A stretch of 48,069 nt of DNA from an uncultured Candidatus Saccharibacteria bacterium (GTDB taxonomy: Bacteria > Patescibacteriota > Minisyncoccia > Phycocordibacterales > Phycocordibacteraceae). How positions within the stretch are numbered: the stretch's first letter is position 1; each line of letters begins with the position of its first letter. The notes beneath the pieces are model-generated. The model did not search any database, was not told the origin of the DNA, and was given only the letters and a program-made list of their open reading frames with translations. The stretch spans positions 1-48,069 of the forward strand of contig CAYQCB010000001.1 in the NCBI GenBank assembly GCA_964415875.1. The letters are read 5' to 3'. Below are positions 2,274 through 46,707 of the stretch, in pieces. A program made the translations under genes and the position numbers.

Positions 2274-2704
2274 TTAGTAAGAGACTCACTCTTCGAGAGC
2301 CGATATGACTTTATATACCTCCAGACGACCAAGACAAAGGTAACTACGGAGAATACCTGCCCCGCAAGTTCTGCAGCATTCACTCGATAAAACGGAAAAG
2401 GGTCGAGAAAGGTGCCGGGCGCCTGCATAACGGGAGTTAGCACAATGAACAGAACTGCGATTATTGTGTAATATGGCACAAATCTCAGCCAAGAACGGAA
2501 TATCGACTCCTTGACGAAAAGAGTGAGCAGAACTGCCGGCCAGGCATACAAAAAGAAGTAGTAAACTGGCTGAGTAAATGGTTCATGGAAGCGATCGATC
2601 CATGTGCCATAACAGGTACGATTCGTAATTATGCACCAATAACTTACAGGAGCGGAAATCAGCCCTAAAAATGTAAGCACTACTGACGCTATCTTAGTGT
2701 TCAT
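2270..2704 (-). CDS. small membrane protein (about 4 TM), paralogue of 1257-2273
   Basis: 144-aa hydrophobic ORF with the shared FPFYR..AAE motif. Overlaps the stop of the upstream lipase gene by 11 nt. Confidence 0.6.
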   Translation of the reverse strand: MNTKIASVVLTFLGLISAPVSYWCIITNRTCYGTWIDRFHEPFTQPVYYFFLYAWPAVLLTLFVKESIFRSWLRFVPYYTIIAVLFIVLTPVMQAPGTFLDPFPFYRVNAAELAGQVFSVVTFVLVVWRYIKSYRLSKSESLTK

Positions 2705-5700
2705 AATTTTGAGTAACGAGCAATTTTAATTCTTCAAGCATAGCAGTAATTTCTTGGGCTTCTTGAGGAGATACAGTGTTTTGTGGGGCACGGGCTTGCC
2801 AACGGCTCGGCATTTTTGAGGTGATTGAGAGATACTTTTCGAGCGCCTCGATCTGAAACACAATTGTACGGGCGAGTATTTTTTCAATCCCAACAGAGAT
2901 CTTTTTCCGCAAACCCTTCAGAGCACTATCCCGCGTAGACATTGTATCTATGAGCGCGAGATTTCTATTAATTCCTTTCAACTGCGTATCTAGCTGCCGT
3001 TGCATGTTCTTTGATAAGCTAAGCGTTACAACGGCTTTCTCCATATAGGAGATATAGTCTGTGGCTGATACGGCTTCTGTAAATTGCGTCGTCGTACCCA
3101 CACTTGGCTTAATGGCGAAGTCTGCACTACCGTCGCCATTTTCGTCCACCGACAACGCTGAAGCGTCGGCTATGCCGTTTGAAATAGTTAAGTGTACCGT
3201 GGTGCTGGTCGAAACAGGCACATCTGCAATAGTTGCTGTGGCCACGAGTGTCCCCCCAAGAGACTCCTCAATGTCGAGTGAGAACATGCCTGAGGCCAGT
3301 CCACTTAAGTTCAACTGGTATTGACTGCCTGCTGGAGCAATCAGATACTGCACCTCTCCAAACTGGCCGTACTGCGCACCAGGAATGTTTTCTGTAACAG
3401 TGCTGCTTGCGGACAAGCCTGTCGTTTCGCCTTCAGCGTTACTCAACTGAAGAGTGAGTGGAGAGTGGAGGATGAATATGAGTTTTTTATCTTGGGTCAG
3501 GGGAGTAGGAGAGCTTGTCGATATTCCGAATGGTAGGGCATTTTGAGTTGACCCAAGCAAACTGGCAATTAAATCTCCGAGTTGGGTTACTCCAAAAATA
3601 TTTGCATGTGATATTTTAGATTTTTGCGCTTTGTTTATTGAATGTAAATCGACCCAAAACCGTTTTACATTTGTACTGCTCGCCATAGCGAGGGCGCTCG
3701 GCACCGGAACAGTACCATCCCCGTCCTCCGTGAAAATTGGTATATATGAGCGCGGTTGTTCCTCAAACGCCACTGCTGGACCTGCAGCAGACTTGGTTCC
3801 GTACATGGTGTAGAAATCTATTCCGGCCACAGTGTCTATTCCCCACCCTGCAATTTGGTCAACCTCAATACCCGTTGGAGGCACCCAGCGGTCGAGTGTA
3901 TTGTGAATGGTGTTTGCATATTGCACGAGCGCTGAATTTGCGATTTCTGGATCTTTCAAGTCACTCGCCTCAGGGTCTGCTCGCGACGCCAGCGTCCCCA
4001 AAAGAAAATTATCAAACGTATCTCTATCTATTATAGAATTCCCATATGCAGCCTCTTCAGCAGCATAGGCCGGCCCCGAGAAATGCACCACGGGGTGGGT
4101 CGGCTCAGTAATAATCGAGGTGAAGTAGTCCACCGACGGCAACAAGTGATAGGCCATCGGAGAGTTCTGTGCGAGTGCTCTCGCGGCAGCATTTGAAACA
4201 ACACCAATACCGTAATCATAAATGCCGGCATTGTAACCAAGCAGAAGACTGCCAACGGCTGCAGGCGCGCCAGTTTGCGGTACGGCAACCATGATCACGC
4301 GGTCTACCAAAGTAGCGGCCTGGTTGCCAAGGCGTGCGAGCAACGCCTTGGCAACCAGGCCGCCATTTGAGTGCGCAATGATGGTCACCTTCCCTGTTTT
4401 CGAACTGGCAGCCAAACGCCGCAGCATTTGTTCAATATACGGCGTGTCAGTGGCCGTCGCATAGTTAATGTTGCCATTCGTCTCTGCGCCCCTCGTAAGC
4501 AAATCGTTCAGTGACAGCCGCCAGTCATACGCCGCAGGGGACCAATCGTTTATGGTGCCCGCCGCTTTGAGCGATTGCATTTGATCAATAACTGGCTGAT
4601 ATATGGCGCCACCAGCCGAGTCAATAATGTCGCCGTCCTTTGCGTAGATGTCCGAGCATTCGCTTTTACCAGACGTGGTAAGTGCTAATTTAGCAACCTT
4701 TGAGTCGCCCGCACCAAAGACCACTCCCCAAAAACCAGAATACGGCTCCCACAACTTCTCTTCAGCAGTGCCACCACACGCCGTCCCCTCATACAACCGA
4801 CTGCCCTCAATGCCCGGTAGAAAAAGCACGTTGTCAGTGCACGCTCCAGGCACCGCACAGGGATCTGGCACCGATGGGTCCACCGTGAGCCATGGAGTGT
4901 ACGTAACAGCCCCCTCTATGCCATTTCCGCTTCCAGCCACATTCGCTAGCGTGTCATGCGGCCCCGAGGCACTGCCCCACCAATCATCTCGAGCATCGAT
5001 AGCGGTACTCGCGTCATTTAATACGCCGAGATCTGTATTGTCGTGAATGCTTGAATCGTGTACCACGACTGAGTCATGGCCTTCCGAATACATGCCCGTT
5101 GCATTGTGATCGATTTCACTGTGTGCAACCAAAAGAGAACCTCCTCTCATATAGATGCCGTCGTCTGTGTTATTAAAAATGTGCGTGTTGTGCAACGTAA
5201 GCATCCCTCCAGCAACCGTTATACCGACTTCGTGATTTGAGACCTGCGAATCAGAAAGCGTGGTAGTACCAGACCACTGGCCAAAACCGTCATATGCATT
5301 GTGCGTGAAGGTCATGTGCGAAAGCATCAGCACTCCTCCAGCATTTGCTATTCCTGTACGAGGAACAGGTGTGATATACCCGCCACCATAGCGAACAGTC
5401 GCGTACGAGACCGTACCACTTGAGCCTGGCTCAAATTCCACATGCATCCATTGTCCGTCGGTTGGCGTACTACTTGCCTCTCCACTGGTAAGGCCACCAA
5501 CAGAATCATCCTCTGTCGACGTGAAAAAGATGGGACTATCTGCTGTCCCCTCTGCCACAAGCGCTCCATACACCAGCATTCCGTTTTCTTTCCCAAATTT
5601 CACCACAACGCCAGGATCAATATGGAGCGATGCACCAGCCAACACACTGAACAAAGTCACGCCATTGTAAGTCCGCGGCATTTCTACAACGTACGGACTC

Positions 5701-5855
5701 TCGGAAAGTGTCCAGTGAGTGTCAGTAGCAATATTACTTGTGACCGCCGTTGCCGCACGCGCGGACACGGGGAAACCGCAGCATCCGACAATTGCCAAGA
5801 CTGCAGTGAGCCCTATTCGTCTGGGCATGCGCAAGCGCATGGCGAGCCCCTTCAT
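2694..5855 (-). CDS. secreted parallel beta-helix protein fused to an LCAT/lipase-type alpha/beta hydrolase, with a C-terminal coiled coil
   Basis: Signal peptide RIGLTAVLAIVGCCGFPVSARA. The start is probably the MKGL Met at 5855; the ORF is open to 5918. PbH1-like repeats (HNTHIFNNTDDGIYM, HSEIDHNATGMY, HDSSIHDNTDLGV) end in DDWWG. Then YDWR and the nucleophile elbow IIAHSNGG. Confidence 0.8.
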   Translation of the reverse strand: MKGLAMRLRMPRRIGLTAVLAIVGCCGFPVSARAATAVTSNIATDTHWTLSESPYVVEMPRTYNGVTLFSVLAGASLHIDPGVVVKFGKENGMLVYGALVAEGTADSPIFFTSTEDDSVGGLTSGEASSTPTDGQWMHVEFEPGSSGTVSYATVRYGGGYITPVPRTGIANAGGVLMLSHMTFTHNAYDGFGQWSGTTTLSDSQVSNHEVGITVAGGMLTLHNTHIFNNTDDGIYMRGGSLLVAHSEIDHNATGMYSEGHDSVVVHDSSIHDNTDLGVLNDASTAIDARDDWWGSASGPHDTLANVAGSGNGIEGAVTYTPWLTVDPSVPDPCAVPGACTDNVLFLPGIEGSRLYEGTACGGTAEEKLWEPYSGFWGVVFGAGDSKVAKLALTTSGKSECSDIYAKDGDIIDSAGGAIYQPVIDQMQSLKAAGTINDWSPAAYDWRLSLNDLLTRGAETNGNINYATATDTPYIEQMLRRLAASSKTGKVTIIAHSNGGLVAKALLARLGNQAATLVDRVIMVAVPQTGAPAAVGSLLLGYNAGIYDYGIGVVSNAAARALAQNSPMAYHLLPSVDYFTSIITEPTHPVVHFSGPAYAAEEAAYGNSIIDRDTFDNFLLGTLASRADPEASDLKDPEIANSALVQYANTIHNTLDRWVPPTGIEVDQIAGWGIDTVAGIDFYTMYGTKSAAGPAVAFEEQPRSYIPIFTEDGDGTVPVPSALAMASSTNVKRFWVDLHSINKAQKSKISHANIFGVTQLGDLIASLLGSTQNALPFGISTSSPTPLTQDKKLIFILHSPLTLQLSNAEGETTGLSASSTVTENIPGAQYGQFGEVQYLIAPAGSQYQLNLSGLASGMFSLDIEESLGGTLVATATIADVPVSTSTTVHLTISNGIADASALSVDENGDGSADFAIKPSVGTTTQFTEAVSATDYISYMEKAVVTLSLSKNMQRQLDTQLKGINRNLALIDTMSTRDSALKGLRKKISVGIEKILARTIVFQIEALEKYLSITSKMPSRWQARAPQNTVSPQEAQEITAMLEELKLLVTQNYEH

Positions 5856-6023
5856 ATTTTTACCGTAACATATGAAATACGTGCGCAAGTCACCGGGTGT
5901 GGAAAGATGCGAAACCAAAACAGGACACTCCTTTTACTTACGGCTTCACAAGTTTACCCACACACCCTCTCCCTGTGCACAGAGCGTGGCACTGCGTAGC
6001 CTCAAGAGGGTACACTGTACGCA

Positions 6024-7700
6024 ATGACTCCTGACGAACTCAAGAAACATATACAAGGCGCTATACAAGGAGAAGTAAAAGACGATGCCGAGTCACTTAA
6101 AAAAGCGAGCCGCGATACTTCTCTTTTCGTGCGAGTACCAGAACTCGTCGTGTGCCCAAAGGACACCGCGGACGTGTGCGCCATTGTGAAAGCCGTGAGC
6201 GCCTCTCATGCTGCTGGTAGCGGCGCTGTGCTTGCTGCGCGCTCGGCCGGTACCGACATGAGCGGCGGCCCGCTCACTACTGGCGTCGTCGTCTCCTTCA
6301 CTGAACACATGAATCGCGTGCTTTCGGTTGAAGCTGACGCCTTGGGTGGTGTAGCTGAAACAGAGCCTGGTGTGTTCTACCGAGATTTTGAAGTGGAAAC
6401 GCTCAAAAAAGATCTCATACTTCCCTCCTTTCCTGCCTCTCGTGAGCTCTGTGCCATGGGCGGTATTGTCTCAAACAACTCGGGCGGCGAACGCACGCTC
6501 GAGTACGGCAAGACAGAAAAATATGTCGAGGAGCTTGACGTGGTGCTCTCCGACGGATCAACTGCCACCTTTAAAGCGCTCACTCCCTCCGAACTCTCTG
6601 AAAAGAAAAAACTCGAGACGCTTGAGGGGAAGATATACCGAGACATGCACGCGCTCGTCATCAACTCCGCAGAAGTCATTTCGGCGCACCGCCCCAAGGT
6701 TTCAAAAAACTCGGCTGGTTACGCGCTCTGGAGCATCCTCGACTCGAAAACCGGACTTTTCAACCTCGCAAAACTCATCGTTGGCTCGCAAGGCACGCTC
6801 GCTCTCTGGACGCGAGCAAAGTTGCGCCTCGTGAAGCCAAAAGATCACCGCGCCATGCTGGTGGTCTTCCTCTACGAGCTCACGCACCTCCCTGAAATCG
6901 TAGAGAAGGTGCTCCCGTTGCGCCCTGAGTCGTTTGAGAGCTACGACAATCACACCTTTGAGCTTGCTGTGAAATTTTTGCCCGAGATGCTCTCGCAAAT
7001 GGGCTTCGTAAAAGCCGCTCGACTCGGCATTGATTTCATCCCTGAGGCCGCTATGGTCGCCACCGGCGGCGTTCCTCAAATGATTCTCATGGCTGAATTT
7101 GCGGAAGACACTATAGAAGAGGCAGACCGAAAGGCGCTTGCGGCACAAAAAGCCCTCGAAGGATTCCATGTGCGCACAAAAATTGAGAAGAACGAAAAGG
7201 AATCCGAGAAATACTGGATCGTCCGTCGAGAAAGTTTCTCCCTCTTGCGCAAGAGCCTCCACGGCATGTACGCTTCGCCGTTTATCGACGACTTTGTGGT
7301 GCCTCCGTCGTGCTACCCGAGCTTCTTGCCCAAACTTGAAGCGATTCTCCAAGAATATAAGTCACACTTCGTGTACACCGTCGCCGGGCACATTGGCAAT
7401 GGTAACTTCCACATCATTCCGCTCATGGATCTCTCAAAGGCAGAGAATCGCGCCATCGTACTCGAGCTGGCGCCAAAAGTGTATGAGCTCGTCATTTCTG
7501 AGGGTGGCACCACCACCGGCGAACACAACGACGGCATCATCCGCACGCCGTACCTCTCCATGCTTTTTGGAAAAGACATGGTGGCGCTTTTCGAAGAAAC
7601 AAAAAAGACGTTTGATCCGCAAAACATTTTCAATCCGGGCAAAAAAGTGGGCGGCACGTTTGAGGACATCAAAAACGACATGATACAAGACGTCGATTAG
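6024..7700 (+). CDS. FAD-binding oxidoreductase (GlcD / D-lactate dehydrogenase-like)
   Basis: 558 aa. N-terminal FAD-binding PCMH-type region (AARSAGTDMSGGPL) and C-terminal FAD-oxidase region (GGTTTGEHNDGIIR). Confidence 0.8.
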   Translation: MTPDELKKHIQGAIQGEVKDDAESLKKASRDTSLFVRVPELVVCPKDTADVCAIVKAVSASHAAGSGAVLAARSAGTDMSGGPLTTGVVVSFTEHMNRVLSVEADALGGVAETEPGVFYRDFEVETLKKDLILPSFPASRELCAMGGIVSNNSGGERTLEYGKTEKYVEELDVVLSDGSTATFKALTPSELSEKKKLETLEGKIYRDMHALVINSAEVISAHRPKVSKNSAGYALWSILDSKTGLFNLAKLIVGSQGTLALWTRAKLRLVKPKDHRAMLVVFLYELTHLPEIVEKVLPLRPESFESYDNHTFELAVKFLPEMLSQMGFVKAARLGIDFIPEAAMVATGGVPQMILMAEFAEDTIEEADRKALAAQKALEGFHVRTKIEKNEKESEKYWIVRRESFSLLRKSLHGMYASPFIDDFVVPPSCYPSFLPKLEAILQEYKSHFVYTVAGHIGNGNFHIIPLMDLSKAENRAIVLELAPKVYELVISEGGTTTGEHNDGIIRTPYLSMLFGKDMVALFEETKKTFDPQNIFNPGKKVGGTFEDIKNDMIQDVD

Positions 7701-9622: not shown

Positions 9623-10357
9623 ATGATTGAAATACGTGACATCACCAAAACCTACGGAGCTGGCCCCGAAGCCTACACGGCGCTCAAAGGTGTTTCGTTT
9701 ACGGTAAACGAAGGCGAATTTGTGGCCATCATGGGCCCGTCTGGCAGCGGCAAATCGACCCTCATGCACATCATTGGTTGCCTAGACACGCCCACGAGCG
9801 GTTCCTACCGCCTTGACGACCGAGACGTGTCAAAAATGACCGACGACGAGCTTGCAAACATTCGGAAAGATAAAATTGGCTTCGTCTTTCAAGCGTTTAA
9901 CCTATTGCCACGCACCACGGTGCTGCGTAACGTGGTGCTGCCTCTTATTTACGCAAACATGCCTCCACACGAACGCGAAAAGCGCGCAGGCGAAGCACTC
10001 GAGGCAGCCGGGCTGCCCCGCGACCACTTCACGCACCTCTCGAACCAGCTCTCGGGAGGACAGATTCAGCGCGTCGCTATAGCGCGAGCACTCGTAAACG
10101 ATCCTTCGCTCATTCTTGCTGACGAACCCACTGGCAACCTCGACTCCAAAACGAGCCTCATTGTGCTTGGCACCTTGCAGAAACTCAACCGCGAACACGG
10201 ACGCACGATCGTACTCATCACGCACGAACCAGACATTGCCGAACACGCCAGCCGCATCATTCGCCTGCGCGACGGAGTCATCGTGTCCGACGAGAAAAAT
10301 GCCGCGGTGCGAGACGCCACGCTCGAGACGCGCCTCTACGACACGCAAACAACATGA
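9623..10357 (+). CDS. ABC transporter ATP-binding protein (MacB/LolD-like)
   Basis: Starts at [12 protein letters not shown]. Walker [10 protein letters not shown], signature LSGGQIQR, Walker B LILADEPT. Confidence 0.9.
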
Positions 10358-12904: not shown

Positions 12905-12921
12905 CTCCCGTCTTCCGCACC

Positions 12922-12953
12922 AAAAAACTCACCCCTTTGGGGGTGAGTTTTTT
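12922..12953. terminator. bidirectional intrinsic terminator
   Basis: AAAAAACTCACCCC-tttg-GGGGTGAGTTTTTT, with A/T runs on both sides. Sits 8 nt past the stop of the minus-strand operon. Confidence 0.8.
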
Positions 12954-12960
12954 GCGTTAC

Positions 12961-16249: not shown

Positions 16250-16279
16250 TGCTCTAATTCATAGCCTTAGCGGCTTAGT

Positions 16280-16309
16280 ACTGAATCCAAGCCACTGCTT
16301 GGATTCAGT
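16280..16309 (-). promoter_or_regulatory. intra-operon stem-loop after the first TasA-like gene
   Basis: ACTGAATCCAAGC-4 nt-GCTTGGATTCAGT, a perfect 13-bp stem with no T-run, in the 82-nt gap before sipW. Confidence 0.5.
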
Positions 16310-16331
16310 GTAAACCGTCAAACCGAGACGT

Positions 16332-17915
16332 TTACTGCTGACCGAGTGTAAAGGTCAGCGTTGTCGTGAGACCTGCACCCTGGAACGAGTTGCCCGTGGT
16401 TGGGCCATCAAGCTGCACACCCAGCGTGAGCTTCTTTTCTGCACCTGCTGCGAAACTTATCGGAGCGTTCACTAGCGGTGTAAGCCGCAAGTCCTGCATG
16501 TCTGCATAGCCGTTGTGGTTTTGGTCAATACCGTTAACCAAGCCTGCAACAGGCCCGCCGAGGAAGCCTACCGTGTTGACGTTGGCTGAAACCTGATCTG
16601 CTGGGTTCATGTCACCCCACCAGTTGTTCTGGCCGTTGACGTCGATACCGGTGTTGTTATTGATCCCAATTGCAACATTAGGCGTGAGATTGTTTTGATT
16701 AATGGTTATGTTTGCTGCGCTTGTATTTGGTTGTTCAACCTGAACACCCACCGCGTCCCCCGATCCTGAAGTTAGGTCGTGCACATCGTTAAGCGTTACA
16801 GAAGCGTTGGGCGTGTTGCCCTCAAGTGCAATGGCGTGTGCCCACCCACCAGAGAGATTGTTCACGGAGTTGTGTGTGACAATGAGGCCACTCACTCCTG
16901 GTCGGCCCGTAGCACCAGCTCCTGCGTTGACCATAATGCCGTACGCACCCTTAAGCGACTTCACGTTAGTAACAATGTTGTTACTAACGTTCACGGTCGT
17001 GATAGCCCCAGTAGCTGCGGAGTCTCCTGCGTAGATACCTTGGTTCGAGCCGTTATTGGCTGCATTTCCGATATTCTCAATGACGTTACCTGAAAAGGTA
17101 AAGTTAAACATTGCGGTTGAGTCGCCCTCAAGGTAGATCCCCTGGTGATTAAGATTATCAGTAAGCGAGGTGGCAATGTCATGGATGTGATTATCCTTTA
17201 TTGAGACATCGTGTACACCGCTATGAATTACAATACCTTCAGCGGCCGACGCTCCAGAGATACCGAATCCACGGAGAGTCACGTTACTAGCAGTGATGTC
17301 AAACGGAACGCTTGTCGTAACTGCTGGGCCCTGTGTCGAGACAATCGTCATTGGTTGCGTGACGGGAATTGTAGGCATACTCTCCCAGGTTGCGTTGTAA
17401 TCGCCAGGGGCCACACAAACTACCTTGCCGCTATTGTTTGTATCCTGCGTTGCGGTACTAAGCTTCGTACCTGAGACAGTTATGTCACAGTGCGTTGGTG
17501 CCACATAGTCGGCAATCGTCGCGCCTGCGCCACCCTGAAGAAGGTTCGAGCCATCGAGCGTGAGTGAGGTGATGCGCACCTGTTTCTCGTAGCCGCTTAC
17601 AGACTCAGTGCTGGCGGCACTGATTCCCAAGTGCATGCCATCAATACTTCCTGTGTTCTTGAGCCACACACTCGCTACGCTAGGCGCACCACCTGGTGCC
17701 ATCGCGGAGAAATTCCACGGTGCCGACTGTGACGTCTCCCAGCCATTGACAGCGGTACCATTCGAATCTTTAGCAATGGCGAGGTTGAGTGTGCCCGCCG
17801 TAAACACGTTTGCTTGTGCGCTTGCTGTCGACGTGAAGAATGCGCCAGTCGTTGCCGCATAGGTTGCACCTACGAACGCCAGTGCTCCAAAACCCAGTAA
17901 TAGATACTGTTTCAT
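16332..17915 (-). CDS. TasA/camelysin-fold protein with a large nested parallel beta-helix domain
   Basis: Start at MKQYLLLGFG. SipW-class motif TGAFFTSTASAQANVFTAGTLNLA. MAPGGAPSVASVWLKNTGS. PbH1 repeats (VSIKDNHIHD, FSGNVIENIG, VSNNIVTNV, VTHNSVNNL) ending NNWWG. C-terminal NSFQGAGLTTTLTFTLGQQ resembles the TasA C-terminal strands. Confidence 0.75.
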   Translation of the reverse strand: MKQYLLLGFGALAFVGATYAATTGAFFTSTASAQANVFTAGTLNLAIAKDSNGTAVNGWETSQSAPWNFSAMAPGGAPSVASVWLKNTGSIDGMHLGISAASTESVSGYEKQVRITSLTLDGSNLLQGGAGATIADYVAPTHCDITVSGTKLSTATQDTNNSGKVVCVAPGDYNATWESMPTIPVTQPMTIVSTQGPAVTTSVPFDITASNVTLRGFGISGASAAEGIVIHSGVHDVSIKDNHIHDIATSLTDNLNHQGIYLEGDSTAMFNFTFSGNVIENIGNAANNGSNQGIYAGDSAATGAITTVNVSNNIVTNVKSLKGAYGIMVNAGAGATGRPGVSGLIVTHNSVNNLSGGWAHAIALEGNTPNASVTLNDVHDLTSGSGDAVGVQVEQPNTSAANITINQNNLTPNVAIGINNNTGIDVNGQNNWWGDMNPADQVSANVNTVGFLGGPVAGLVNGIDQNHNGYADMQDLRLTPLVNAPISFAAGAEKKLTLGVQLDGPTTGNSFQGAGLTTTLTFTLGQQ

Positions 17916-18559: not shown

Positions 18560-18609
18560 CCGGGAATACAAAAGGGCCGCGCGTAAGCGCGGCCCTTTTG
18601 TATTCCCGG
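18560..18609. terminator. perfect 23-bp inverted repeat, bidirectional terminator
   Basis: CCGGGAATACAAAAGGGCCGCGC-gtaa-GCGCGGCCCTTTTGTATTCCCGG, between convergent genes. Confidence 0.75.
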
Positions 18610-20522: not shown

Positions 20523-21359
20523 ATGACCAAAGACGAGCAGTGGGTGCTGGAGGAGAAATATGGAGGGACGCCAGGCGCGGCGTTTGAGTCAGACAAAGGC
20601 CGGCTCGCCCTTGGCGAGCCGGTGGCCTATGTGATTGGCTCACAGCCCTTTCTCGGGCTCACGGTGTACCTCGACTCCCACCCGCTCATTCCCCGCAGCG
20701 AGACCGAGTGGTGGACGGAGCAACTCATTACCACTCTCACCCCCCAGAGCACCACAGGTGCGATTTCTGAGGCTCTGCGCAGGCCGACGGGCCGAGCAGG
20801 AGGAAAGTTTTTAGCAAAAAACTATTCCGTACTCAGAAATCACGCCAGTGGTGCTCCCCTTACCTTTCTCGACCTCTGCGCCGGCTCTGGCGCCATCGGC
20901 TGTGCTGCTCTCAAAACGTTACCGGACGCACACGTGACCTTTGCGGAAATTGAGCCTGCGCACAAAGAAACCATCATTAAAAACATTCGAGAAAACAACC
21001 TTGATTCGGACAGAGCAGAGATTGTTGTCGGTGACTTATTCGCACCACTTGCCAACCGCCGCTTCGACGTGATTGCGTGCAACCCGCCCTACATCCCTAC
21101 TGCACGCTCTCTTGAAAAGAGTGTTGCGGACTTTGAGCCACCTGCTGCACTTTTCTCGGGCAGCGAAGGACTCGACCTCATTCGCCGCATCGCTCTCGAG
21201 CTACCCGCACACCTCACAGAAAGAGGTAGTGCGTGGATCGAGTGTGACAGTGCCCACGCAGATGTTGCTGCAGCACTCTTTAGCGCCCAAGGATTCTCCA
21301 CAGAAGTCCGTAACGACCAGTACGGTGTGCAGAGAGTGCTGGTGGTATCATTTCCCTAA
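20523..21359 (+). CDS. prmC: release-factor glutamine N5-methyltransferase carrying an in-frame repeat-element insertion
   Basis: SAM motif LDLCAGSGAIG and catalytic NPPY (IACNPPYIP). An extra segment of about 27 aa is encoded by the repeat at 20762-20841. Confidence 0.85.
   Translation: MTKDEQWVLEEKYGGTPGAAFESDKGRLALGEPVAYVIGSQPFLGLTVYLDSHPLIPRSETEWWTEQLITTLTPQSTTGAISEALRRPTGRAGGKFLAKNYSVLRNHASGAPLTFLDLCAGSGAIGCAALKTLPDAHVTFAEIEPAHKETIIKNIRENNLDSDRAEIVVGDLFAPLANRRFDVIACNPPYIPTARSLEKSVADFEPPAALFSGSEGLDLIRRIALELPAHLTERGSAWIECDSAHADVAAALFSAQGFSTEVRNDQYGVQRVLVVSFP
20762..20841. repeat. palindromic element, copy 1 (inside prmC)
   Basis: 10-bp terminal inverted repeat GATTTCTGAG/CTCAGAAATC around a 60-nt core that is 53/60 identical to 39327-39386. 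Confidence 0.85.
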
Positions 21360-39262: not shown

Positions 39263-39304
39263 AAATAGCACCGTCTTTTTATCAAACTCTGACCCTCTTC
39301 TGTG

Positions 39305-39408
39305 CAAGAGGCGAATGATTGGTGAGGCTCTGCGCAGAGCGACGGCTCGAGCAGGAGGAAAATTTTTAGTAAAAAATTATTCCGTACTCACCAATCATCC
39401 GCCTCTTG
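39305..39408. repeat. palindromic element, copy 2 (intergenic, between KH-protein gene and trmD)
   Basis: 22-bp terminal inverted repeat with one mismatch (CAAGAGGCGAATGATTGGTGAG / CTCACCAATCATCCGCCTCTTG) around the same 60-nt core. Confidence 0.85.
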
Positions 39409-39412
39409 CGAC

Positions 39413-45044: not shown

Positions 45045-45740
45045 TCACCACCCGCGTGCAAGCAACCCCGCGTGAGCGGCCGACTGCTCTGCTTCCTGTT
45101 TGCTCTGCCCTTCTCCGCGAGCAATCTCTTCCTTCCCGATGAACACGCCGACTGTGAAGTGCTTGTCGTGATCGGGTCCCGCCTCGGCAAGCGTCTCGTA
45201 GTTAGGTGTAATGCCCTGGTGCTCTTGCGCTGCTTCTTGGAAACGACTCTTTGCGTCCTGGTACGAACGCTTCGCGATAACGTCATCAATTTTCCCGTAC
45301 AAATTGTGTGCGATAAATTTCTCTGCGGCGGCAAACCCTTGGTCAAGGTAGATGGCACCGATAATCGCTTCAAAAGCATCCGCCAAGATGACGTCGCGTG
45401 CTCTCCCCGTGTCGCGCGACTCGCCTTTTGAGAGCAATAAATAATCATTGGCTCCGATCAGTTGTGCGCTCTGTGCAAGCGAAACCGTGTTCACGAGCGC
45501 GGAACGAAATGCCGTGAGCTCGCCCTCCGGTTTTGCCGGAAACTTCTTAAAAAGAAAATCGGTCGCAGCAAGCTCGAGCACAGCGTCTCCCAAAAACTCG
45601 AGACGCTCATTGTGCGAGCCGGCGTGTTCGCGGTGCTCGTTTAAGTACGAACGATGCGTCAAGGCCTCGGCAAGAAGACCGAGGTTGTTAAACGTGACGC
45701 CAATTGAGGAAGCAAAAGTAGTGAAATCAGGCATGAGCAC
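45045..45740 (-). CDS. rnc: ribonuclease III
   Basis: Signature NERLEFLGDAVLEL and a C-terminal dsRBD. Confidence 0.9.
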   Translation of the reverse strand: MLMPDFTTFASSIGVTFNNLGLLAEALTHRSYLNEHREHAGSHNERLEFLGDAVLELAATDFLFKKFPAKPEGELTAFRSALVNTVSLAQSAQLIGANDYLLLSKGESRDTGRARDVILADAFEAIIGAIYLDQGFAAAEKFIAHNLYGKIDDVIAKRSYQDAKSRFQEAAQEHQGITPNYETLAEAGPDHDKHFTVGVFIGKEEIARGEGQSKQEAEQSAAHAGLLARGW

Positions 45741-46626: not shown

Positions 46627-46707
46627 TGAAAGATCTGTTACCTCTTGAGTATAGCAAACAACAAGGCCGCGCAAGCGCGGCCTTGTTGTTTTCCGTGGAT
46701 TATAAAA

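Follow-up and report, generated by a model that had tools for sequence, protein, structure and literature searches.

Rickettsia palindromic elements (RPEs) are small palindromic repeats that lie between genes or in frame within housekeeping genes, where the host protein tolerates an extra segment, and they have no transposase nearby (PMC10969869; PMC3733652). Repetitive extragenic palindromic sequences (REPs) are occasionally intragenic and in frame as well, and different REPs occupy approximately the same site in recB of two Xanthomonas species (PMC3733652). [quoted passage not shown] Long perfect inverted repeats also occur in functional coding sequence of Nematomorpha mitochondrial genes (PMC6649704), and template switching is known to homogenise and expand the arms of inverted repeats and to invert their spacers (PMC8604942, PMC13100816). 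Here, we describe a hairpin element, type A, from a stretch of 48,069 nt (hereafter the window: contig CAYQCB010000001.1 of assembly GCA_964415875.1, forward strand) that belongs to an uncultured Candidatus Saccharibacteria bacterium, in which one copy of the element is translated as part of the release-factor glutamine methyltransferase PrmC. In a part-coverage search of the literature, the candidate phyla radiation (CPR) or Patescibacteria were not paired with REPs, MITEs or REP-associated tyrosine transposases (RAYTs), nor was prmC paired with palindromic repeats, and no earlier account of the family emerged.

Two copies of a three-way-junction hairpin in the window

The prmC gene of the window (20523..21359, + strand, 278 aa) carries copy 1 of the element in the sequence for its inter-domain linker (20762..20841, + strand). 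Copy 1 consists of an inner closing stem of 10 bp, the strands of which, GATTTCTGAG (20762-20771) and CTCAGAAATC (20832-20841), are perfect reverse complements, and of a 60-nt core folded as a three-way junction. A first-pass annotation, made by reading the letters of the window alone, had reported such inverted ends around a 60-nt core, and its coordinates proved exact: a covariance model (R1), built on an ungapped 80-column alignment of 22 type A copies, returns precisely the same interval (103.2 bits, E = 1e-27). The annotation was also right that the core recurs at 39327-39386, and it missed the full 80-nt copy present there (copy 2, 39317..39396, + strand, R1 99.2 bits), which lies in the spacer that separates a KH-domain gene from trmD of the rpsP operon, on the strand antisense to the operon. 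A search of the window with R1 recovered copies 1 and 2 only, and a 41-nt degenerate core pattern likewise matched only these two, with 0 matches expected from 100 dinucleotide shuffles.

Fold prediction gives both copies a long stem topped by the three-way junction. Including the outer arms, the hairpin of copy 1 spans 20748..20855 (+ strand, -58.9 kcal/mol, z = -9.5) and that of copy 2 spans 39304..39409 (+ strand, -58.9 kcal/mol, z = -8.8). Helix 1 of the junction in copy 1 (20775..20799, + strand) reads CTGC-GCA-GGCC-GACG-GGCC-GA-GCAG with the loop GACG, and helix 2 (20802..20828, + strand), the 5' side of which starts within the conserved GAGCAGGAGGAA block, is a hairpin of 11 bp that has a single bulged A and the tetraloop AGCA. 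The two copies are 86% identical over 81 nt and differ by compensated changes in all three helices: in the closing stem, where copy 2 has the 10-bp inverted ends GATTGGTGAG/CTCACCAATC and the TC/GA of copy 1 is replaced by GG/CC, in helix 1, where the inner pairs are GGCC/GGCC in one copy versus GAGC/GCTC in the other, and in helix 2, where G:C stands against A:T.

The stems of both copies reach about 13 nt past the 80 nt, into sequence unique to each site. In copy 1 the outer arm AGCACCACAGGTGC (20748-20761) pairs with ACGCCAGTGGTGCT (20842-20855), with three uncompensated positions. The orthologous arms of L110 (L-numbers are labels of fetched related loci) are perfect (GCACGGCTGGCGT/ACGCCAGCCGTGC) and are related to those of the window by a compensated CA:TG to GG:CC change. 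In copy 2 the arm GCAAGAGGCGAAT (39304-39316) pairs with ATCCGCCTCTTGC (39397-39409) with one A.C mismatch; a walk along this stem counts 22 Watson-Crick pairs, and the hairpin ends 3 nt short of the stop codon of the KH-domain gene. The initial picture of an 80-nt block bounded by fixed terminal inverted repeats must therefore be abandoned, since the closing stem covaries and runs on into site-specific arms, for a total of 19-29 bp.

The whole window gave no match to Rfam 15 at gathering thresholds, and at E <= 10 the region around the element gave chance-level miRNA matches only (E > 3). Hammerhead, twister, purine-riboswitch and bulge-helix-bulge structures were compared by eye and rejected, as their junction lengths and conserved nucleotides do not fit.

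A covarying hairpin family in Patescibacteria genomes

An exact scan with the core sequence CAGNNNGACGNNNCGAGCAGGAGGAA of one genome per species (185,579 species) returned 25 stretches. The full element is present in 21 loci (23 copies), all in Patescibacteria metagenome-assembled genomes (MAGs); the remaining matches lack the rest of the element and come from non-Patescibacteria MAGs (L013, L017, L027) and a Kaiserbacteria MAG (L018). Viral contigs had no match to the type A and type B cores, so that a phage vector is not indicated. R1 added a few further type A copies in the related loci. When applied to 80 further prmC loci taken from metagenomes, it matched the linker in 19, always on the sense strand, and outside prmC it matched at 3-4 places in about 650 kb of flanking sequence of the 80 loci, while the window holds two copies in 48 kb. 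All in-frame type A copies found lie in prmC and the other copies are intergenic; the latter, although untranslated, have the same structure as the prmC copies. The check by core that the first-pass annotation had suggested yielded additional copies in Patescibacteria MAGs and, among the copies found, no in-frame insertion in a gene other than prmC. Because the same architecture is found in more than 40 independent assemblies (NCBI, JGI, ENA, Logan), an assembly artefact is unlikely.

In the 22-copy alignment 95.5% of the cells pair in the structure described above, versus 37-53% on sliding the 3' partners, and both sides have changed in 19 of the 29 pairs. All ten inner pairs of the closing stem have changed in this manner, as have three of the four inner pairs of helix 1 and six pairs of helix 2, in which 99.6% of the cells are paired. 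None of 500 shuffles reached the observed values of four of five measures, and two did so for the fifth (further pair types). The inner closing stem, 6-10 bp long, takes two main forms (GATTTCTGAG/CTCAGAAATC and GAAAAG/CTTTTC) and is followed by an outer stem of 10-20 further bp that is different in each copy and nearly always perfectly Watson-Crick paired. The sequence of the apex is strongly conserved, and the stem keeps complementarity only. For the arms of L004 and L022, compared by eye, no compensated change was seen.

An RNA helix under selection is expected to gain G.U pairs. Among about 900 stem pairs, single mismatches comprise six G.T and seven A.C, and because G.T is no commoner than A.C, the stem pairing appears to be maintained as DNA rather than RNA. 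The stems are nonetheless asymmetric between strands: tandem 5'-GA/GA-3' makes up 6 of the 8 internal loops of 2x2 size and is found at 10 of the 50 stem ends, and TC/TC is never seen.

The translated insert of PrmC

Homologues of the window PrmC carry Pfam MTS/Cons_hypoth95, are named HemK or PrmC by their sources and, where they bear the name of an organism, are labelled as Paceibacteria, Kaiserbacteria, Minisyncoccota or Patescibacteria, which places the window in a CPR bacterium. As first noticed, the ORF reads through the palindromic element in frame between the ETE and the SAM-binding motifs: copy 1 corresponds approximately to residues 80-107, translated as ..AISEALRRPTGRAGGKFLAKNYSVLRNH.., and the stretch spanning the insert includes ..ISEALRRPTGRAGGKFLAK... 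The spacer between SETE and LDLCAGSG counts 53 aa, in agreement with the earlier figure, and the LDLCAGSG and NPPY motifs are intact, as had also been stated. Compared with the solved HemK structures (1NV8/1SG9), the window PrmC has 46 residues where the structures have 11, about 35 more, which supports an insert of roughly 27-36 aa and accommodates the excess of about 27 aa that had originally been estimated. In the AlphaFold (AF2) model of the window PrmC the mean pLDDT (per-residue confidence) is 88, and residues 76-80 and 86-109 fall below 50, between two confidently folded domains. The prmC copy is thus predicted to be translated as a disordered loop in the inter-domain linker; a surface loop was a possibility that the first-pass annotation had raised.

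The reading frame through the linker is open and stop-free in 80 of the 80 metagenome prmC loci. In copy 1 only one of the six frames is open, the reverse strand having stops in all three of its frames, and this explains why type A always lies sense in prmC. Two other, conserved segments of PrmC are encoded by near-perfect palindromes in many orthologues, RLA-x-GEPL by GCAAGCGGCTCGCC-CGT-GGCGAGCCGCTTGC and SAHA-AA-ALF by AGCGCGCACGCGGC-T-GCCGCGTGCGCGCT (for example, L001:10074-10104 and L057:10625-10653; weaker in the window at about 20598-20625), and L107 and L071 contain other small hairpin inserts at further PrmC sites.

Recurrent occupation of the prmC linker by different apex types

Comparison of orthologues revealed that the segment is lineage-variable: the length of the linker from PR.ETE to CAGSGAIGC is bimodal (35-44 versus 51-80 aa) and some orthologues have no insert. 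When all distinct linkers were folded, most were found to encode a strong hairpin regardless of length, with the hairpin absent from about a dozen. Perfect inverted repeats that run without interruption for 10 bp or more are present in 45 of 68 distinct linkers, as opposed to an average of 5.8 in shuffles. These palindromes display at least six apex types, type B in both orientations. Short linkers hold plain palindromes, such as CTCATGTAGGACAT-CGG-ATGTCCTACATGAG, many of them perfect almost to the centre, which likewise points to pairing as DNA, and long linkers hold the type A apex in several subtypes. Types C, D and E are also present among the linkers. Type B encodes the peptide FSVVGLGLAARSATEN when forward in the linker and FSVALRAARPSPTTEN when reversed (L035, L066). 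Two elements lie within the single prmC linker of L025, and in L099 the apex has been deleted between ACTC microhomologies with the arms kept. Even the nearest relatives of the window differ, L110 (PrmC 72% identical) having type A and L109 (69%) type E, and the apex types are scattered over a star-like, unresolved neighbour-joining tree of PrmC from which the linker was excluded. The prmC linker is a recurrent home or target, not a single accidental hit.

Most lineages use frame 2 to read the helix 2 hairpin, whereas L072 and L103 use frame 0 and L041 and L108 use frame 1, and the three frames specify unrelated peptides. Orthologous copies (L001, L016, L025, L052, L029) have arms that differ from one another, each matching its partner; in L001, L016 and L025 the 5' arm consists of the native EQL codons of PrmC. 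Relative to L110, L002 and L001, the 80-nt core is 92.5, 87.5 and 81% identical, the gene outside the linker 75, 65 and 66% (nucleotides) and the 4-fold sites of prmC outside the linker 53, 53 and 47%. We conclude that the element is conserved as nucleic acid, in non-coding copies as well, and that the encoded peptide, which comes from three frames, is not conserved; together with the improbability of an assembly chimera, this answers the two objections that the first-pass annotation had raised against its own proposal.

The same genomes harbour a family of short GTAG-containing palindromes (..TGTA-GGAC-ATCSGAT-GTCC-TACA..; TGTAGGAC..GTCCTACA), which recur several times per locus (L057:1027-1061, 6062-6092 and 10209-10239; L040:5837-5865 and about 6539; L061:7927-7959; L100:2880-2914; L106, about 3800 and about 3826) and in many genomes lie in the prmC linker. 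A palindrome of this family is in frame in another large ORF in L057, L061 and L100, seemingly at the same position as judged by similar flanks.

Shared sites, nested elements and strand orientation

The KH-trmD spacer that holds copy 2 is also occupied by type A in L010 and L014, in the same relative orientation as in the window. The spacer 3' of a DsbA-like gene contains type A in L061, L050, L086 and L035, and type B in L066, L105 and L097 (forward) and in L057 (reverse); in other genomes it contains a terminator-like hairpin only, or is empty. Intergenic copies are situated about 20 nt from the ends of the flanking ORFs. L010 bears two tandem direct copies with identical cores and different arms, only one of which has long arms. 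In reverse-oriented type B copies the GA/GA base is flipped too, and because GA..GA flips with the element it must be part of the element, not a target duplication. We had considered GA..GA as a 2-bp target duplication and rejected it on this ground, as it inverts to TC..TC with reverse-oriented copies; our first reading of the outer arms, as an inverted target duplication, is possible only as template switching.

Small related elements enter the apical loops of these hairpins without target duplication. An element of about 57 nt, type F (..GACTTTGTTTTCTTATGAGCGAAGCGAATTAGAAAACAAGAAGTACTCTTGTGGTG), is nested in the helix 2 tetraloop of two type A subtypes at two loci, namely in prmC of L033 (within 234-419) and after dsbA of L035 (about 5357-5510). 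Variants of type F lie inside the type B copy of L097 (about 16265-16415) and, in L082 (within 2229-2345), in frame in a second loop of PrmC that immediately precedes NPPY. No target duplication was found at the nested type F copies of L033, L035, L097 and L082.

The copies are oriented relative to the compositional strand asymmetry of the chromosome. In 25 of the 29 intergenic copies of types A and B, the model strand coincides with the C-rich strand of the locus, and the ratio is 14:1 when orthologous sites are counted once and |skew| < 0.015 is ignored. Of the 34 loci that reach at least 10 kb, 32 have prmC on their C-rich strand. The + strand of the window has negative GC skew throughout and bears the model strand of both copies. 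With respect to neighbouring genes the intergenic copies are mostly antisense (approximately 11 loci to 4).

Comparison with described systems

The closest known kinds to the type A family appear, by analogy, to be REP/REPIN (paired-REP hairpin) and RPE elements. As in RPEs, a palindromic repeat is borne as a surface segment of a housekeeping protein, PrmC (fold z = -9.5; pLDDT < 50; catalytic motifs intact). The host, however, is a CPR/Paceibacteria bacterium at about 55% GC and not Rickettsia, and full exact-core copies are confined to Patescibacteria MAGs in a scan made by core, without alignment to RPE consensus sequences. Copy number is low and the in-frame copies found are all in prmC, whereas RPEs occupy dozens of unrelated genes; the type A apex is conserved and its arms are hypervariable and site-specific; and the use of three reading frames leaves no conserved RPE-like peptide. 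The RPE-like behaviour initially proposed therefore stands insofar as a palindromic repeat is tolerated as a loop, and falls as regards low copy number, restriction to prmC, the lack of a conserved peptide and RPE membership.

REPs and REPINs, which RAYT Y1 transposases mobilise, resemble type A in being hairpin repeats about 20 nt from flanking ORF ends with occasional in-frame intragenic copies, and the asymmetry between strands in type A is consistent with its being processed in single-stranded form. At 80 nt or more and with a three-way-junction apex, type A is nevertheless unlike a REP of 20-40 bp. It lacks the unpaired terminal GTAG/CGTC tag, CGTC being merely the helix 1 loop on the complementary strand; its copies are few instead of tens to hundreds and include one tandem direct pair (L010), where REPs often form inverted dimers; and its stem sequences are not conserved between copies. 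In RAYT systems the repeats flank the RAYT gene; the window has no such gene, and one Pfam Y1_Tnp gene lies at the edge of L003. The GTAG-containing palindromes of the same genomes, which also occur in the prmC linker, could themselves qualify as REPs.

Like MITEs, type A is small and dispersed, has inverted ends and fuses in frame with an ORF, but these ends covary (at least two inner-stem forms) instead of being fixed, target-site duplication is absent, no parent insertion sequence with matching ends was found and orientation is biased relative to GC skew. IS200/IS605-type single-strand DNA elements and their miniature derivatives form hairpins, lack terminal inverted repeats and target-site duplications, are strand-specific and have an orientation coupled to replication; observed for type A are hairpins, the absence of target-site duplication, strand asymmetry and orientation with GC skew in 25 of 29 copies. 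The Nematomorpha genes are similar in combining a functional protein with a strictly kept DNA secondary structure; there, however, both arms encode conserved protein regions and no dispersed conserved apex exists, whereas the arms of type A occupy a linker that is dispensable, capping a repeated core that is also found intergenically. Template switching, finally, explains the perfect arms without wobble, the compensated multi-nucleotide differences, the flipped inner units and the arms that are inverted copies of neighbouring native codons, but it is a mutational mechanism and leaves the conserved core, the GA/GA closures and the dispersal to other loci unexplained. Since in-frame intragenic REPs and RPEs are already known, the kind of thing is not new; type A stands apart by its host phylum, by a free-running stem topped with a three-way-junction apex, by its few copies, by the re-use of the same few sites by several apex types and by its strong conservation in situ.

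A proposed REP/RPE-like repeat acting as single-stranded DNA, and its alternatives

We favour the reading that type A represents a low-copy family of REP/RPE-like hairpin repeats of Paceibacteria-type CPR bacteria, acting through single-stranded DNA and with arms shaped by template switching, and give it a probability of about one half. The element would act in hairpin form within the single-stranded DNA of one replication strand, and an enzyme encoded at a distance would copy or move it in trans, the most plausible candidate being of the Y1/HUH type (RAYT/IS200-like). Its favoured landing places would be hairpin loops already present or the small number of tolerant positions in these compact genomes, and such preferred landing could account for the repeated occupation of the prmC linker and a few short spacers by different apex types. 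Polymerase template switching at the hairpin would most simply produce the outer arms and keep them matched, homogenising and extending them and inverting spacers, and PrmC would merely tolerate the extra residues. An in-frame inverted duplication of the kind that template switching makes is seen in an unrelated gene of the window (4315-4363). The involvement of single-stranded DNA is suggested by the strand asymmetry, the skew-linked orientation, the lack of terminal inverted repeats and target-site duplications, and the insertion into hairpin loops. The sole candidate for a mobilising enzyme is a Pfam Y1_Tnp (IS200/RAYT-type) gene at L003:20717-20819 that starts at the locus edge; in L003, type B occupies prmC and type A lies at 17136-17211.

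Several observations weigh against this reading. The window contains no transposase or HUH gene, as judged from the ORF list by eye and from Pfam on 10 unnamed ORFs, which agrees with the first-pass annotation on the transposase, and the other ORFs look by eye like housekeeping or envelope genes. Searches of the fetched loci by tblastn with approximate RAYT and IS200 TnpA queries gave no credible match, a weak negative. We found neither a consistent direct repeat in the flanks that would represent a target-site duplication nor fixed terminal repeats, and no pair of close strains with and without type A at the same site and with clean boundaries. Copies are few: two in the 48 kb of the window and, outside prmC, 3-4 across about 650 kb of flanks. 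Copies occupy orthologous positions in genomes at about 60% protein identity and their cores are conserved in situ, which is more suggestive of a functional element under maintenance than of active selfish DNA; template switching leaves the conserved GA/GA closures unexplained; and for short loci the GC skew does not separate the direction of replication from the prevailing direction of transcription. It had been proposed that the element is merely tolerated selfish DNA. This is not established, as the core is more conserved than its gene and orientation follows GC skew, and function or active maintenance of the element is possible.

We tentatively raise, as a somewhat unlikely proposition, that type A typifies a class not described before: strand-oriented structures of single-stranded DNA with a conserved apex, a three-way junction or another, a GA/GA-closed base and a free-running stem, which serve either as functional sites or as a loop-targeting mobile element. 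The functional version may comprise a small fixed set of CPR chromosomal sites, one of them inside an essential ORF; the mobile version may comprise nested palindromes without a transposase of their own that have repeatedly remodelled the same protein linker.

The alternative that fares best is a nucleic-acid element serving the host, a conserved cis-acting hairpin at a few fixed positions, one of them dual-coding in prmC. It could be a replication signal in single-stranded DNA (for priming, fork processing or the loading of condensin or topoisomerase) or an RNA hairpin (for RNase III processing or transcript stabilisation). We regard this as a real but minority possibility, kept alive by the in-situ conservation and the syntenic occupancy: the core stands far above synonymous sites in conservation among orthologous copies, and the occupation of at least three loci extends across genomes that share about 60% protein identity. 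It would also fit the low copy number, the palindrome that about two-thirds of PrmC linkers keep whatever their apex type, the orientation with GC skew, the strand-specific GA/GA closures, and a putative RNase III gene in the window (45045..45740, - strand; signature ..ERLEFLGDAVLELAAT.. recognised by eye). Harder to reconcile with a host function are the interchange of unrelated apex types at the same sites, the orthologues without any element, the loss of the apex in L099 and the nesting of elements inside one another. A role at the mRNA level in particular sits poorly with intergenic copies that are mostly antisense (about 11:4) and show no G.U preference, there is no Rfam match, and no candidate binding protein was identified. 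From what is established about RNase III, stems of at least 20 bp would be its substrates; the 20-29-bp perfect stems carried by prmC mRNA and by the spacers between cistrons would be natural examples.

It is improbable that there is no discrete element at all and that the palindromes are by-products of unusually active template switching (fold-back) in these genomes, having arisen independently at any place that tolerates insertions, with their shared cores due to convergence or gene conversion. Inverted duplications do exist in native coding sequence (4315-4363 in the window; RLA-x-GEP and SAHA..ALF in prmC), arms do copy neighbouring native sequence (the EQL codons of L001, L016 and L025), and arm homogenisation, expansion and spacer inversion are documented (PMC8604942, PMC13100816). 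Fold-back copying, however, cannot create an 80-nt core with two covarying hairpins that recurs at unrelated loci in many genomes at 81-100% identity, nor do defined core subfamilies, conserved GA/GA termini and near-identical nested 57-nt copies at different loci fit such an origin. Template switching as a complete explanation is largely refuted by the dispersed, near-identical cores, and probably survives as the mechanism that shapes the arms.

A selected PrmC loop of about 27-36 extra residues, for example, one that binds a partner, with the palindrome incidental, has very little left in its favour. The insert keeps the frame and lacks stops in all 80 loci, and an FSAE(K/N)Y motif recurs in many orthologues. 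Three frames of the same DNA with unrelated peptides and intergenic copies that conserve the same nucleotides nonetheless essentially refute this explanation, and the linker moreover accommodates at least six unrelated apex types with type B in both orientations, arm changes are compensated in nucleotides while residues change, the insert has pLDDT < 50, and some orthologues have none. Equally far-fetched is an intron-like or ribosome-bypass element whose removal or skipping would leave mature PrmC without the segment, for although the long stem brings the flanks together and ribosome-bypassed hairpins exist ('byps' of yeast mitochondria, T4 gene 60), the frame would then be free to vary, yet it is open in 80 of 80 loci and in all listed homologues, and no bulge-helix-bulge, group I/II signature or Rfam match is present.

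If type A is mobile, the writing of palindromes into essential proteins known from RPEs and REPs would extend to a phylum-level radiation with tiny genomes. The natural series of linkers (empty, plain palindrome, six apex types, flipped and nested) offers a view of the growth, inversion and in-gene tolerance of hairpin DNA, and the skew-linked orientation and in-situ conservation make it testable whether these are replication-coupled single-strand elements or domesticated chromosomal signals. For annotation, lineage-specific 'inserts' of 10-45 residues in CPR proteins are to be expected as translated hairpin DNA, not functional domains.

Other palindromes and hairpins

A second gene of the window contains an in-frame inverted duplication. 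At 4315-4363, inside an ORF on the - strand (2694..5918; 1074 aa, surface or lipase-like), a perfect 21-bp inverted repeat surrounds a 7-nt centre (GCGGCCTGGTTGCCAAGGCGT-GCGAGCA-ACGCCTTGGCAACCAGGCCGC) and encodes ..AHSNGGLVAKALLARLGNQAAT.., in which RLGNQAA is the reverse-complement reading of GGLVAKA. Two intergenic palindromes (1134-1163 and 1197-1231, the latter with 17-bp arms, AACCCCCTGAGGACACG C CGTGTCCTCAGGGGGTT) share the centre GGACACG-C-CGTGTCC and resemble the short GGAC..GTCC palindrome family of other Paceibacteria loci.

Terminator-like hairpins are a class distinct from the palindromic elements. Each has an A-rich tract and then a perfect hairpin rich in GC (AAACAAAAACGCCCGCGC-loop-GCGCGGGCG..), an arrangement resembling a bidirectional intrinsic terminator, and in most prmC loci they are located approximately 20-60 nt upstream of the prmC start (for example, L003:9942-9986 and L055:315-354). 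In the window they are found at 12921-12954, 18560-18609 and 46656-46691.

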